A DNA stretch of 64,000 bases from Candidatus Daviesbacteria bacterium (GCA_016186955.1 JACPKP010000003.1:194290-258289); one strand, 5' to 3'. Shown: positions 39,824 to 43,921, counted from the first letter of the stretch. Program-made: numbers and translations. The notes: generated from the letters alone by a model not told the origin.

Positions 39824-40591
39824 ATGGAACAGATATTGGGAAAAGCTGAAAGTTACCCCCACCATCTCCCAGAAAATGAGAGATATGGAATGGATCCTGA
39901 TCTTTTGACTGATAAAATAGTGGGTTCACCTTTTTCTGACAGGCTGATCTTGGCTCATATGAAAGCAGGCAATATTGTTATCAAGCCTTTTGTAAAAGAG
40001 CATCTGACCAGTTCAAGCTATGATATCAGGTTAGGCAGGTATTATTATGAAGAACAGCAGCCGGAAAAACCCGGCGGTTTGTTCAACCCTTATAGCAGCG
40101 GACATGTAAAAAAAGTTTGGGGGAAACCAAAAGAAGCTATTAAAGCAGGAACTTTACTGGATAGGTTTCCCGACAAAAATGACTGGCAAAACATAGAGGA
40201 GGATGATGACGTAATTTTATTTGAACCCCTAAAGACCTATCTTTGTCATACCTATGAGTTTATAGGTATGCGCAGTGTAGGTACTGAAATGATGAAAGCG
40301 CGTTCCACAACTGGCAGGATTTTTCTGGAGATCTGCAAATGCGCCGGTTGGGGGGACAACGGATATATCAACCGCTGGACCATGGAAATTACCAGTAACT
40401 GTTCTTACTATTCAATACCTATTGTTGTGGGGACCAGGATCGGGCAGCTGGCATTTTTTTATACAGGAGAGACTGACAGGCCTTATGTAGGAAGGGGAAG
40501 TTATCAAAACACTAACGATTTTGAACAGCTTGAAAGGGAATGGAGCCCTGAATGTATGCTGCCAAAATTAAAAAGGGATCCAAAAATATGA
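39824..40591 (+). CDS. dcd: dCTP deaminase family protein (with C-terminal extension)
   Basis: ILAHMKAGNIVIKPF ... SSSYDIRLG dCTP deaminase/dUTPase-fold signature. Confidence 0.65.
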   Translation: MEQILGKAESYPHHLPENERYGMDPDLLTDKIVGSPFSDRLILAHMKAGNIVIKPFVKEHLTSSSYDIRLGRYYYEEQQPEKPGGLFNPYSSGHVKKVWGKPKEAIKAGTLLDRFPDKNDWQNIEEDDDVILFEPLKTYLCHTYEFIGMRSVGTEMMKARSTTGRIFLEICKCAGWGDNGYINRWTMEITSNCSYYSIPIVVGTRIGQLAFFYTGETDRPYVGRGSYQNTNDFEQLEREWSPECMLPKLKRDPKI

Positions 40592-41295
40592 TTGAAAAAC
40601 AAAAGGCTTGCCTGCCCTGCCCTGCCGGCAGGCGGGCGGCAGGCAGGGGCTGCTGGATTGCATTTGAAGGTAATGACGGTTGCGGAAAATCTGACCAGTG
40701 CAAAAGATTTGCGGAATATTTAACTCATGATTTGGGTATAGGACCTGTTGTAGAGACAAGGGAGCCGGGTGGCTGTTTTGAAGCGGAAAAAATTAAGAAT
40801 ATGTTATTTTTGCCGAAACTTGCCAAATACCCTATTGTTCAGCTCCATTTACTTTTGGCTGCAAGACACCTCAATATTTTTGAGACTGTTGAGCCAAGCA
40901 TTGCCATGCAGGCTATTGTTTTGCAGGATCGGTCAGAAGGGTCAACTATTGCCTACCAGGTTTTCCAATACGGTTTGGATTATGAGATAGCAAGGGCTAT
41001 GAATGATTTTGCCACAGCCGGATGGAGGCCGGATCTAACCATGTTATTGGATGTAGATGAGAAAGTTGGTTGGCAGAGAAAGCATGCTTCAAAAGAGGGG
41101 GCTTCCAATTACTTTGACAATGCAGATTTTACTGATCTGCAAAACAGGCGGAAAGGCTATCTTTGGCAGGCTAAAAACTATAAAAAGCTGGATTTAAACC
41201 CCTGGGTTGTCATTGATGCCAACAGGCCAAAAGATGAGGTTTTCAAAGATGTTGTTGCAGCTGTTAAAAAAAGCGGCTTGATAAGAGGGATTTAA
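40588..41295 (+). CDS. thymidylate kinase-like P-loop kinase
   Basis: IAFEGNDGCGKS P-loop and ETREPGG motif as in Tmk; ATGA overlap with dcd; ORF track start 40552 lies inside dcd. Confidence 0.55.
   Translation: MIEKQKACLPCPAGRRAAGRGCWIAFEGNDGCGKSDQCKRFAEYLTHDLGIGPVVETREPGGCFEAEKIKNMLFLPKLAKYPIVQLHLLLAARHLNIFETVEPSIAMQAIVLQDRSEGSTIAYQVFQYGLDYEIARAMNDFATAGWRPDLTMLLDVDEKVGWQRKHASKEGASNYFDNADFTDLQNRRKGYLWQAKNYKKLDLNPWVVIDANRPKDEVFKDVVAAVKKSGLIRGI
40605..40650. repeat. GC-rich palindrome (ccctgccggcagg / ggcggcaggcagggg) at 5' end of Tmk-like CDS
   Basis: direct reading; strongly atypical composition for this genome. Confidence 0.6.
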
Positions 41296-41307
41296 GGATA
41301 ATTTAAA

Positions 41308-42390
41308 ATGATTGAAAGAGGAAAATTAATAGTTTTGGAGGGGATTGATTACGCAGGGAAAGGGACACAGCTTAAATTACTGGAAAAAAGTTTACTTGAG
41401 AGGGGAATACCTTATACAATGATAGATTTTCCCCGTCACGGACAAAATCATTATGCTTATGTAGTAGACAGGTATCTTGCGGATAAGTCGGGAGAAAAAG
41501 TTGACCCCTATTTTGTGACGCTTTCGTACGCTGGTGACAGGGCGCTCGGTAAACCGCTGATAAACTGCGGTTTGGATTACGGAAAGCTGGTAACCCTTGG
41601 AAGGTATGTTTCATCCAACGCTTACAGTGCGGCAGAGCTGCCTCCCGAAGAACGCGAAGGGTTTCTTAAATGGTCTAACGAGTTTGAATATTATAAAAAC
41701 GGTCTTCCAAGGGAAGATTTGGTAATCCTTTTGGATACACCGGTTAAAGTGGCCCAACAAAGAATAAACAACAAACCCGATAAAAACGAAAGGGATTTGC
41801 GTCTTCAACAGGAAGTATCCAGTGTATATAAAAATCTTTTGGAATCTGAACCGAATTGGGTTGCAGTACAAACACAAAACAAAAGCGAACTTGGAATAAA
41901 TAGTGAGATATTAAAAACACTTGATAAAAGAAATTTGCTGCCGAAAGTTTATCCCCTGGATGTTTATTTCGGATGTTCAATCCAGGGCGAATCGGGCGGA
42001 GACGGAGTAAAAAAAACTATTATCGGCCTGATCCGGGATTTGGGCCATCATGTTTTATCGGAGATGTTTATTTCAGAGGATATTAATTTAAGACGGGGCA
42101 GGCAGCTGCAGGACGATGAAGTTTATGCTGACGATATTTACATGATGCACCGGGCTAAAGTAAAAGTTATGGATGTCTCAAGGATTAGCTTGGGTGTGGG
42201 TTATGAGATAGGTTGGTCCCTGGCTAAAAATGAAAGGGTAATTGGGCTTTGCGAAAAGAGCAGATGGGATCACTTATCAAAGATGATAAAAGGCAACACT
42301 GAGCCGAATTTTGCATTATACAGCTGGGAAAGTGAGGATGATGTGCAAAACATTCTAAGGATGGAGCTGGGGGAGGTAAACAATGGTTGA
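41308..42390 (+). CDS. fusion protein: N-terminal dNMP/thymidylate kinase-like P-loop domain + C-terminal nucleoside 2-deoxyribosyltransferase/DNPH1-like domain
   Basis: LIVLEGIDYAGKGTQ P-loop; C-terminal VYFGCSIQG...DDIYMMHRAKVKVMDVSRISLGVGYEIGW resembles NDT-like flavodoxin-fold family. Confidence 0.5.
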   Translation: MIERGKLIVLEGIDYAGKGTQLKLLEKSLLERGIPYTMIDFPRHGQNHYAYVVDRYLADKSGEKVDPYFVTLSYAGDRALGKPLINCGLDYGKLVTLGRYVSSNAYSAAELPPEEREGFLKWSNEFEYYKNGLPREDLVILLDTPVKVAQQRINNKPDKNERDLRLQQEVSSVYKNLLESEPNWVAVQTQNKSELGINSEILKTLDKRNLLPKVYPLDVYFGCSIQGESGGDGVKKTIIGLIRDLGHHVLSEMFISEDINLRRGRQLQDDEVYADDIYMMHRAKVKVMDVSRISLGVGYEIGWSLAKNERVIGLCEKSRWDHLSKMIKGNTEPNFALYSWESEDDVQNILRMELGEVNNG

Positions 42391-43921
42391 GCAGGATATT
42401 CAGCCAAATTTTTATACTGTAATTGGAGTTGAGCCGGAGGTTTTGGCATACGCCCTGGCCAAATTTTCCCGTTCTGCCAATACCTTAACTGAAACTTTAA
42501 AAGAACTGTCGGGTGAGAAAGCGGAAAAGTTTTTTAATACATTTTATTTCCAGTACGGCCACAACTCAATAGCGGATCTTCTGCATGTTGTGTTGTCTTT
42601 AGAAAATATACCCATCATTGAGGCCATTGAAGTTTGGGATGATCCGCTAATAGACGGTCAGGAATCATCTACCAGATACCAGAATTTTTCCAGAAGGAGG
42701 TTTGCCACGCCCCAGAGGTTAGTAGGATTACCGATGGAGCTTTACTACAAAAATATGGGCAATAAGTTATTTGAAACTTACTTTCAGCTGCAAGAGCCTG
42801 TTTCTAAATATCTGCTGGAAAAATACGGGCCAAGCCGGCCTGCTGATATTGATGAGGGGACAGCTTTGCGGACTGCCAATGCCAGGACTTTTGACAGGAC
42901 CCGTTACCTTTTGCCATCTTCAACCTATACTAATATGGGTATTATCATGTCAGCCAGAACGGCTGAGAAGATGATCATTAGGTTGGTTTCAAACCCTAAC
43001 CCGGAGATTCAAAACCTTGGTGCAAAGATAAGGGAAACGGTCAAAGACCACCCGGCCTTTAATCTGGTTTACGAGAAACAAAAGCAGTTATTTTTGGACC
43101 AGGAAGATTTCGGCCCAAGGCAGGAATTTTATCAACAGGCTTTGGATTTGGCGCTTGGAGATGTCAAAAGCGCACCAACCCTGGTTAAATACACCAACCC
43201 CTCGCAGTACCAACAAATGATGTACGCCCGCCTAAAAGATGCAGCAAAACAGTATTTAGGGGATGAGGAGCCTGAAAACGGCCGGTTAGCCAGGTTGCAT
43301 TTTAATATCCATCCTGAAATTGAAGCTGCAGCTACAGCATTATACAAAGGTTCAAACCATTCTTTCCAGCAGGCTTTGGAGGTTGCGGAAGGGATGGAAT
43401 ATGGGGAGAGAAGGGATCTTACTGATTCGCTTTTTGAGGGCAGGGGAGCCAAAGATGAGACTGTAAGGGAGGCTAATACAGGCAGGATGTTAATTTTTGA
43501 CATTGAAACAGATAACGGCGCTTTCAGGGACCTGATCAGGCACAGGAATATGGTCAAGATTATCCAGGATTTTACCCCAAATTTAGGGTTTGATACGCCT
43601 GAAGATTTTAAGGCTGCAGGTTTAGACTGCCAGTATAAGCAAGTCATGGAATCAGCGGGAATTTTAGCTACTGCCTTAGACTCAGAGCTTTTGGGGGTAG
43701 GGCAATATATCCTGCCGCTTGCCTACAGGAGGAAGATGTTAATGAAAATGGATAGCGCCCAGTTGCAATATATTGTGGAAAACAGGACCACTACCCAGGG
43801 GCATTTTTCCTACAGGGAAACAGCTTATAAAATGTGGCAGCAGGCGATGCAATATATCCCCGACCTGGCAAAACATATCCGCGTTACCCACCCTTCAGTT
43901 GAAAACTTCTGGAAAAGGTAA
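42383..43921 (+). CDS. thyX: flavin-dependent thymidylate synthase ThyX, long tandem-duplicated (pseudo-dimer) type
   Basis: half 1: YGHNSIADLLHV, QESSTRYQNFS, ARTFDRTRYLLPSSTYTN; half 2: IRHRNM (RHR), GQYILPLAYRRKMLMKMDSAQLQYIVENR; motifs split between halves. Confidence 0.55.
   Translation: MVEQDIQPNFYTVIGVEPEVLAYALAKFSRSANTLTETLKELSGEKAEKFFNTFYFQYGHNSIADLLHVVLSLENIPIIEAIEVWDDPLIDGQESSTRYQNFSRRRFATPQRLVGLPMELYYKNMGNKLFETYFQLQEPVSKYLLEKYGPSRPADIDEGTALRTANARTFDRTRYLLPSSTYTNMGIIMSARTAEKMIIRLVSNPNPEIQNLGAKIRETVKDHPAFNLVYEKQKQLFLDQEDFGPRQEFYQQALDLALGDVKSAPTLVKYTNPSQYQQMMYARLKDAAKQYLGDEEPENGRLARLHFNIHPEIEAAATALYKGSNHSFQQALEVAEGMEYGERRDLTDSLFEGRGAKDETVREANTGRMLIFDIETDNGAFRDLIRHRNMVKIIQDFTPNLGFDTPEDFKAAGLDCQYKQVMESAGILATALDSELLGVGQYILPLAYRRKMLMKMDSAQLQYIVENRTTTQGHFSYRETAYKMWQQAMQYIPDLAKHIRVTHPSVENFWKR

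Follow-up and report, generated by a model that had tools for sequence, protein, structure and literature searches.

Why should a tiny groundwater bacterium keep two genes of the thymidylate kinase type, one of them fused to a domain that could cleave deoxynucleotides, directly next to a thymidylate synthase whose active-site motifs are divided between two halves? This question is raised by a locus of Candidatus Daviesbacteria, a member of the Microgenomates within the Candidate Phyla Radiation (CPR), which we analysed in a stretch of 64,000 nucleotides (GCA_016186955.1, JACPKP010000003.1:194290-258289; referred to here as the window, with positions counted from its first letter). Four tightly packed genes on the plus strand occupy positions 39824-43921: a dcd-like gene, tmk, a gene for a kinase-DNPH1-like fusion protein and thyX. 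A preliminary description, made from the sequence alone, had given the gene order as dcd, a Tmk-like gene, a fusion of a Tmk-like kinase with a domain resembling nucleoside 2-deoxyribosyltransferase (NDT) or DNPH1, and a ThyX of 512 amino acids (aa). Every domain that it named was matched with Pfam and NCBIfam, including the hidden Markov models Thy1, Thymidylate_kin and Nuc_deoxyrib_tr with which it had proposed to check the order. The purpose of the operon is an ordinary one, the chromosomal supply of deoxythymidine triphosphate (dTTP), to which one accessory bifunctional protein has been added.

The 512-aa ThyX (42383-43921) is matched by Thy1 in two stretches (E 5e-25). Half 1 (aa 1-245, 42383-43117) carries Thy1 on aa 17-222, and half 2 (aa 262-512, 43166-43921) is recognised even on its own, with an E value of 3.9e-9 and, for aa 251-512, 37 bits at a cut-off of 24.8; a Thy1 match in both halves was the point on which the preliminary description had staked its reading. 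With TIGR02170, for which the cut-off is 87.9, the protein reaches only 35 bits. In the canonical enzyme, which binds flavin adenine dinucleotide (FAD) and deoxyuridine monophosphate (dUMP), subunit A contributes RHR and Arg199 to the active site, subunit B Ser71 and Arg190, and subunit C Arg87, Ser105, Arg107 and Tyr108 (PMC6514825). Half 1, mapped by a family-profile alignment to ThyX of Mycobacterium tuberculosis (3gwc), has H60, S62, the stretch Q93-E-S-S96-T-R98-Y99, R174 and R192; S62 corresponds to Ser71, R192 to Arg190, and S96, R98 and Y99 to Ser105, Arg107 and Tyr108, which are the roles of B and C. In place of RHR it has D86-D87-P88, and the equivalent of Arg199 is L201. Half 2 has R382, R386-H387-R388 (43538-43546), R468 and H474, of which R386-H387-R388 corresponds to RHR and R468 to Arg199, the role of A, and it contains neither S-x-R-Y nor an equivalent of Arg190. 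The ThyX motif RHRx7-8S(x)RY is thus not found within a single domain, and the full set occurs once per polypeptide, across the halves. The motif mapping agrees with the earlier observation of the His and of QESSTRY in half 1 without RHR, and of RHR in half 2.

That such a pseudo-dimer with split motifs could be functional had also been suggested before, and the split does follow the published subunit roles. All of the role residues are invariant in the 42 aligned family members (42/42), and the same split recurs in another type of long ThyX, of 595-612 aa, which is only 24% identical to the one in the window. In half 2 of the window protein, position 357 is a Lys; 36 of the 42 family members have His at this position, which in the alignment corresponds to the flavin-site His ('GHxS') of canonical ThyX.

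No significant similarity was found between half 1 and half 2 with hhalign (23 columns, probability 11%). Single-sequence searches against PDB sequences with the whole protein or with each half found no ThyX; the family profile alone reached the M. tuberculosis ThyX in the PDB, and this with half 1 only. An AlphaFold2 model built from 42 homologs is confident (predicted local distance difference test, pLDDT, 89; predicted TM-score, pTM, 0.88), and its significant fold matches in the PDB are ThyX structures only. Since the halves have no internal sequence similarity, it is Pfam and the fold that point to a duplication. As the motif split matches the subunit roles, A against B and C, we infer that the protein is a covalent pseudo-dimer, the dimer of which would mimic the canonical tetramer and have two complete sites rather than four. 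Half 2 would place RHR on FAD and dUMP and supply the Arg199 equivalent, whereas half 1 would supply the FAD-binding Ser, the Arg190 equivalent and the S-x-R-Y loop for dUMP. Compared with canonical ThyX, or FDTS (Thermotoga maritima 1o26, M. tuberculosis 3gwc), the Thy1 fold is present in both halves and all residues contacting FAD and dUMP are retained; unlike canonical ThyX, the chain contains two Thy1 domains, its motif is split and its halves are mutually unrecognisable by sequence.

The closest relative of the operon, contig L001, has in the same slot a canonical ThyX of 325 aa (L001 3501-4478) with the full RHRx7SxRY motif. Because the canonical enzyme replaces the 512-aa protein in situ, the two share a genomic role and are interchangeable there, which supports the assignment of the 512-aa ThyX as the probable thymidylate synthase of the cell. 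More than 4,000 homologs of 500-530 aa exist in Chloroflexi, Acidobacteria, Bipolaricaulia and CPR bacteria, and every named one is annotated as FAD-dependent thymidylate synthase. The pseudo-dimeric architecture is thus common and not exotic, a widespread but structurally uncharacterised variant; sequence, profile and fold searches of the PDB returned no solved structure with two such halves. The ThyX of Chlamydia, of about 529 aa, is enzymatically active and might possibly have the same architecture; no link between it and the long ThyX was found in the literature searched.

Three ThyX types occupy the same slot of closely related Daviesbacteria operons. The 512-aa split type of the window is 40-45% identical to proteins of Chloroflexi and Acidobacteria, the canonical type is the one of L001, and the 595-612-aa split type occurs in contigs L003 (6685-8472), L014 (1269-3107) and L015. 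This looks like repeated displacement in situ by horizontal transfer.

The second unusual member of the operon is the fusion protein of 360 aa (41308-42390), in which Thymidylate_kin covers aa 10-194 and Nuc_deoxyrib_tr aa 219-319. The C-terminal half (aa 216-360, 41953-42390) matches Nuc_deoxyrib_tr (PF05014) with 32.6 bits, above the cut-off of 28.8 (E 1e-7), and human DNPH1 (9da1, 8os9) with E 2e-9 over 130 residues (domain residues 9-138), and not an unrelated fold, which had been named in advance as the outcome that would speak against the assignment. In DNPH1 the catalytic triad is Tyr24, Asp80 and Glu104, Glu55 activates the water and Ser98 and Ser128' hold the 5'-phosphate (PMC10603095). 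The triad is kept as Y220, D276 and E300, the last being the nucleophile (42205-42207), Glu55 as E252 and the two serines as S294 and S324; triad and E252 are invariant in the alignment of the domain. The pair Ser98/Ser128 separates nucleotide hydrolases from nucleoside transferases. In NDT proper, Asp and Asn bind the free 5'-OH at these positions (PMC12884076, and comparisons of Rcl with NDT), and in the window domain both positions are Ser. With all catalytic and 5'-phosphate residues aligned, the earlier proposal that the NDT-like domain is DNPH1-like and could cleave deoxynucleoside monophosphates (dNMPs) is well founded as far as the sequence can tell. Because the domain belongs to the DNPH1 fold family and the catalytic residues are conserved, it is most likely a dNMP N-glycosidase that would act via a covalent intermediate of deoxyribose 5-phosphate (dR5P) and Glu. 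It shares fold family, triad, Glu55 and both serines with human and rat DNPH1 (Rcl, the 5-hydroxymethyl-dUMP N-hydrolase; 9da1, 8os9, 4fyh). Unlike DNPH1, which is a stand-alone dimer, it is fused to a thymidylate kinase within a dcd-tmk-thyX operon.

The N-terminal half (aa 1-207, 41308-41928), which we call TmkL, is a paralog of the Mycobacterium- and eukaryote-type thymidylate kinases and belongs to a large family. It is matched by Thymidylate_kin (PF02223, E 9e-18) and by the M. tuberculosis thymidylate kinase TMPK (1g3u, E 1.4e-14), it scores 110 bits against NF005923, below the equivalog cut-off of 193, and its fold matches the TMPKs of Plasmodium falciparum and M. tuberculosis in Foldseek with a TM-score of 0.84 and a root mean square deviation of 2.6 Å. 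The residues of the M. tuberculosis dTMP pocket and Mg site are kept: D9, F70 (as Y), R74, R95, N100, Y103, D163 and E166. TmkL thus has in common with the TMPKs (1g3u, 2wwf, 1e2d) the motif FPR(Y/H), Arg74 and Asn100, which bind thymine, Tyr103, which discriminates at the 2' position, and Asp163 and Glu166 of the Mg site; unlike them it is followed by a hydrolase domain at the C-terminus and occurs together with a bacterial Tmk of the canonical kind. A structure prediction of the whole fusion, which had been suggested as a check, gave a confident AlphaFold2 model (pLDDT 91.3, pTM 0.89). Between the window and L001 the fusion is 80% identical (kinase half 80.5%, hydrolase half 80.3%), the dcd-like protein 73% and the first kinase, Tmk1, 56%, so that of the proteins of the operon the fusion is conserved best. 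That the fusion might stem from a frameshift or from faulty assembly was considered and rejected, as the same 360-aa open reading frame (ORF) is present in the independent contig L012 (3 mismatches in 4,978 nucleotides) and a 358-aa ortholog in L001.

Relatives of the fusion were sought among 1.84 billion representative proteins without a profile. Fusions in the same order are few (P0122, P0171 and P0205), and about ten have the opposite order, which is seen in other CPR genomes, including one protein from Roizmanbacteria; P0176 is a triple protein of an NDT-like domain, TmkL and thymidine kinase. When only the hydrolase domain was used as the query, a word-indexed search added just two matches. 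The kinase-DNPH1 fusion is thus rarer than the ThyX architecture. It arose from adjacent genes: in the sister Daviesbacteria contigs L002, L003, L015 and L016, TmkL and the DNPH1-like protein are encoded by separate, overlapping neighbours in the order dcd-dut-tmkL-dnph1-thyX. In two of them (L003 5431-5988, L016 4323-4985) tmkL and the DNPH1-like gene are separated by an ORF of about 185 aa that no Pfam family matches; its stretch 'SDGRGAEFYYG' vaguely resembles the nucleophile motif of the NDT family.

Linkage to enzymes of deoxyuridine and thymidine nucleotides (dU/dT) is a repeated feature of the DNPH1-like family. In L014 a DNPH1-like gene and a tmk of the canonical type are coupled via ATGA, with a long thyX behind them. 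This Tmk (L014 104-739) has Gly for the P-loop Asp (EGQGFSGKT) and TRF for DRY, and may be a degenerate kinase. In nine contigs of high GC content from soil metagenomes (L017-L025) the end of dut is overlapped by a DNPH1-like gene, a more distant one, which starts on the dut stop codon (for example 332-775 and 772-1224 in L020); these proteins keep Arg30 and His56 of DNPH1 and have Arg or Lys in place of Glu55. For classic DNPH1-like bacterial homologs, which have both Arg30 and His56, no such neighbours were seen among the queries used. The TmkL family is in turn tied to thymidylate metabolism and pool sanitation by its natural fusions to canonical Tmk (P0236), DHFR (P0218), NUDIX (P0198) and NDT-like plus thymidine kinase (P0176), and in L009 an NDT::TmkL fusion lies inside a thyA-dut-DHFR cluster. 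Two Tmk-type kinases in one operon had been called unusual, which they are, yet the combination recurs, for instance in the Tmk::TmkL fusion P0236.

The operon begins with the dcd-like gene (39824-40591), which encodes a dCTP deaminase of 255 aa (PF22769, E 9e-25; TIGR02274 70 bits, below the cut-off of 92.8) with E188 (40385-40387) as predicted catalytic Glu. Among solved structures it is closest to 4xjc (E 5e-9) and to the dUMP-forming dCTP deaminase of Methanocaldococcus jannaschii, 1ogh (E 5e-8), with which the active-site stretch 'RS..GR...AGW.D.G...T.EI' aligns. The sibling operons L002, L003, L015 and L016 have an ordinary dcd of 209 aa followed by dut where the window has its 255-aa dcd. 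We searched the 64-kb window with queries for dut, thyA, DHFR, tdk, SHMT and dCMP deaminase and found no homolog of any of them. A bifunctional deaminase-dUTPase would explain the absence of dut, and the protein is probably of this dUMP-forming kind, converting dCTP directly to dUMP. It differs from 1ogh and 4xjc in an N-terminal extension of about 35 aa and an internal insertion.

The second gene (40588-41295) overlaps the dcd stop codon with its start in ATGA (40588-40591, read directly from the sequence). It had been called Tmk-like; the kinase assignment stands, and the protein is in fact a bona fide canonical bacterial thymidylate kinase, Tmk1, which passes the equivalog cut-off of TIGR00041 (106.9 bits against 83.25), matches Thymidylate_kin with E 1.5e-28 and has the motifs FEGNDGCGKS, TREPGG and DRSEGSTIAYQ. 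Further downstream, the fusion gene and thyX overlap by 8 nucleotides. Upstream of the dcd-like gene, and probably transcribed separately, lies pyrG for CTP synthase (38072-39715; GATase and, with E 2e-100, CTP_synth_N), which adjoins the dcd cluster also in L002, L003, L015 and L016. The slot between pyrG and rpsB-tsf-frr is kept in several Microgenomates and is a housekeeping position. Scans for promoters and terminators gave only background level, Rfam had no match in the window, and in the domain annotation no genes for methyltransferases, glycosyltransferases or DNA modification adjoin the cluster.

From the observed domain identities, conserved residues and gene linkages, together with the replacements in situ in sibling genomes, the following pathway can be proposed. 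CTP from PyrG would be reduced elsewhere to dCTP, the dcd-like enzyme would convert this directly to dUMP, the 512-aa ThyX would methylate dUMP to dTMP, and Tmk1 would make dTDP. The DNPH1-like domain would hydrolyse an unwanted dNMP to the base and dR5P; the likeliest substrate would be a dNMP of the uracil type, dUMP or a 5-substituted dUMP. Placed on a kinase, the hydrolase would be a gatekeeper that destroys a wrong monophosphate instead of letting it be phosphorylated towards DNA. Both the substrate and the gatekeeping role are what we infer here. A precedent is found in phages with Z genomes, whose DNPH1-like DmtZ clears an unwanted dNMP from the pool and is encoded next to a dUTPase-like enzyme or fused with it (PMC12884076). 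As in DmtZ/DutZ, a DNPH1-like domain is here coupled to an enzyme of the nucleotide pool, and its relatives in L017-L025 are coupled to dut, a cellular parallel to the phage pair. Unlike in the phages, the partner in the window is a thymidylate kinase and not a dUTPase-like triphosphatase, and the context is cellular housekeeping; furthermore, the triad of DmtZ contains an Asn, where the window domain keeps Asp, and the base to which DmtZ transfers dR5P is 2-aminoadenine.

Several observations weigh against this explanation. The alignment of ThyX half 2 with the canonical ThyX of L001 is weak (hhalign, E 0.015), and it extends over 212 colinear columns, in which the RHR motifs of both proteins coincide and R468 falls on the LR motif. 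The bifunctionality of the dcd-like enzyme is suggested by its nearest solved relatives only. In the DNPH1-like domain the residues that recognise the base, hydroxymethyluracil, in the animal enzyme are changed (Arg30 is Q226, His56 is M253), and because both are changed the base may not be a uracil derivative at all; within the CPR clade Arg30 varies and His56 always gives way to M, I, V or Q, and some other fusions, P0171 among them, keep both. TmkL, which lacks the P-loop Arg of the TMPKs, has G98 (41599-41601) at the position of the DRY Asp, which is otherwise Asp or Asn in the family, and its LID of 9 residues with one Arg is the shortest compared (18-20 in relatives), so that this half may be weak as a kinase. 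The products of a hydrolase are not substrates of the kinase, channelling would bring no gain and, therefore, the fusion fits a transferase at least as well. Finally, the nucleophile Glu is lost in the opposite-order fusions P0176, P0187, P0196 and P0199, which speaks for a non-catalytic reason for the association, such as binding or oligomerisation. Taken as a whole, the explanation by a dTTP-supply operon with a split-site ThyX and a dNMP-gatekeeper fusion is in our view evenly poised between right and wrong. A hybrid of salvage and de novo synthesis, as suggested in the preliminary description, is possible.

The main rival starts from the same covalent dR5P-Glu intermediate (PMC10603095) and takes the DNPH1-like domain as a dR5P transferase, which would turn dUMP and thymine into dTMP while the kinase traps the product as dTDP, a thymine salvage that bypasses thymidylate synthase. 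DmtZ is able to hydrolyse dAMP and also to move dR5P onto another base (PMC12884076), but it has Asn where the window domain keeps the acid Asp. The fusion, modelled with high confidence between its domains (pTM 0.89), makes most sense if the product of one domain feeds the other, relatives are coupled to dut, the maker of dUMP, and P0176 joins the pair to thymidine kinase, a salvage enzyme, although its NDT-like domain has lost the nucleophile. The helix that activates the water and binds the base is unlike that of animal DNPH1, with His56 changed to Met; E252, the equivalent of Glu55, is however invariant in the CPR clade, as expected of a hydrolase. With ThyX in the same operon a bypass is not needed, and the determinant for transfer is not readable from the sequence. 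In some respects this rival explains the fusion better, and as a whole we consider it rather unlikely. It might also be that the kinase half has decayed to a non-catalytic module for binding or dimerisation, with Tmk1 doing all phosphorylation of dTMP and the fusion serving as a dNMP hydrolase, possibly regulated by dTMP or dTTP, which feeds salvage or catabolism in a scavenging CPR cell. Among the proteins compared, only those of the window and L001 have Gly at the DRY Asp/Asn position, these two also have the shortest LID and no arginine cluster in P-loop or LID, their operons are the ones with an extra canonical Tmk, and many opposite-order fusions combine one active with one degenerate domain, from which it is clear that a partner domain can lose its catalysis. 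A decayed module would, however, hardly keep every residue with which the M. tuberculosis TMPK forms its dTMP pocket and Mg site, nor be as conserved as the hydrolase half and far more than Tmk1, and Asn at the DRY position is common in members that are apparently the sole copy, so that a carboxylate is not essential in this subfamily. This possibility we regard as doubtful.

The preliminary description had furthermore considered that the pathway might produce a modified deoxynucleotide. Such a product, for instance a 5-substituted pyrimidine, would go into DNA modification or a secondary metabolite, by analogy with MilA/MilB or with the hypermodification pathways of phages, and the long ThyX would be a C5 transferase outside thymidylate synthesis. 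The top sequence-profile match of the ThyX in the PDB is indeed the UMP/dUMP methylase PolB (4p5a, E 0.0015), the DNPH1 relatives MilB and BcmB release modified bases (PMC10603095), and the base-recognition residues are unlike those of DNPH1. All of this has to be set against a locus that sits in the housekeeping slot from pyrG to rpsB-tsf-frr, against the canonical ThyX or the dcd plus dut that replace its genes in situ, against the more than 4,000 long ThyX proteins, of which all named ones are annotated as thymidylate synthase, and against the lack of adjoining modification genes and of phage relatives. Because of this housekeeping context, the replacements and the missing phage relatives, such a pathway is very improbable. 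An origin from a phage or from a DNA-modification module was likewise rejected, as IMG/VR contained no close relatives of the hydrolase domain and no phage record with the fusion was found.

The beginning of the tmk1 gene contains a further peculiarity. A GC-rich palindrome of 46 nucleotides (40605-40650), reported earlier as translated near the N-terminus of the kinase, does exist there, though it is imperfect, with arms that are 79-100% complementary. It is an in-frame insertion of 15 codons just ahead of the P-loop strand, has 83% GC compared with 44% for the tmk gene, and is absent from the Tmk ortholog of L001 (MTEQKRGVWIAFEGND vs MIEKQKACLPCPAGRRAAGRGCWIAFEGND). The inverted repeats fold into a hairpin of -35.5 kcal/mol with a z-score of only -1.5, and this hairpin, 17 nucleotides past the start codon, could damp the translation of Tmk1. 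The independent Logan contig L012 starts at 40619, so that an independent assembly breaks within the palindrome. A repeated mobile element was considered and rejected, since the palindrome is present as a single copy in the window.

Downstream of thyX, a gene for a secreted-looking protein of 634 aa (43968-45872) with GH16, CBM96 and CBM60 and with Pro-Thr linker repeats is inserted ahead of the HNH and rpsB genes; at the equivalent place L011 (3284-5542) has a different large ORF resembling a secreted glycosidase. The small HNH-like protein (45928-46494; weak Pfam HNH match, E 0.004) has a counterpart directly downstream of thyX in L001 (4513-5175; phmmer, E 2e-40) and is kept although the thyX types of window and L001 differ. 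ORFs with no recorded Pfam family are found at 35997-37286 (429 aa) and 37310-38041 (243 aa), which form the direct flank of pyrG, and at 13176-15938 (920 aa).

What do these arrangements mean for the enzymes involved? ThyX is an antibacterial target. In the split-site ThyX, a homotetramer with shared sites would have been turned into a covalent pseudo-heterodimer with a strict division of labour, and such proteins offer a natural system in which the three subunit roles are separated, for which mixed mutants are needed with canonical ThyX. To our knowledge, DNPH1 has been studied almost only as a human cancer target. The literature searched described no bacterial role of DNPH1 and, as far as found there, has characterised neither the fusion of kinase and DNPH1 nor the association that ties DNPH1-like genes of bacteria to dut, tmk and thyX. 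This association, which takes the form of fusions in either order, of gene overlaps and of shared operons, suggests a testable role of DNPH1 in bacteria, either gatekeeping of dNMPs or base exchange, for which the natural fusions provide a ready set of test proteins. A bolder idea, which we put forward as speculation and hold to be improbable, is that the DNPH1-like domains on CPR thymidylate kinases are natural phosphodeoxyribosyltransferases (for example, dUMP + thymine -> dTMP + uracil) and that bacterial DNPH1 homologs form an unrecognised layer of dU/dT pool control. If it were true, the attached kinase would trap the product, genome-reduced scavengers would have a route to thymidylate that is free of folate and thymidylate synthase, and the control of the pool by bacterial DNPH1 would be linked to dut, tmk and thyX.

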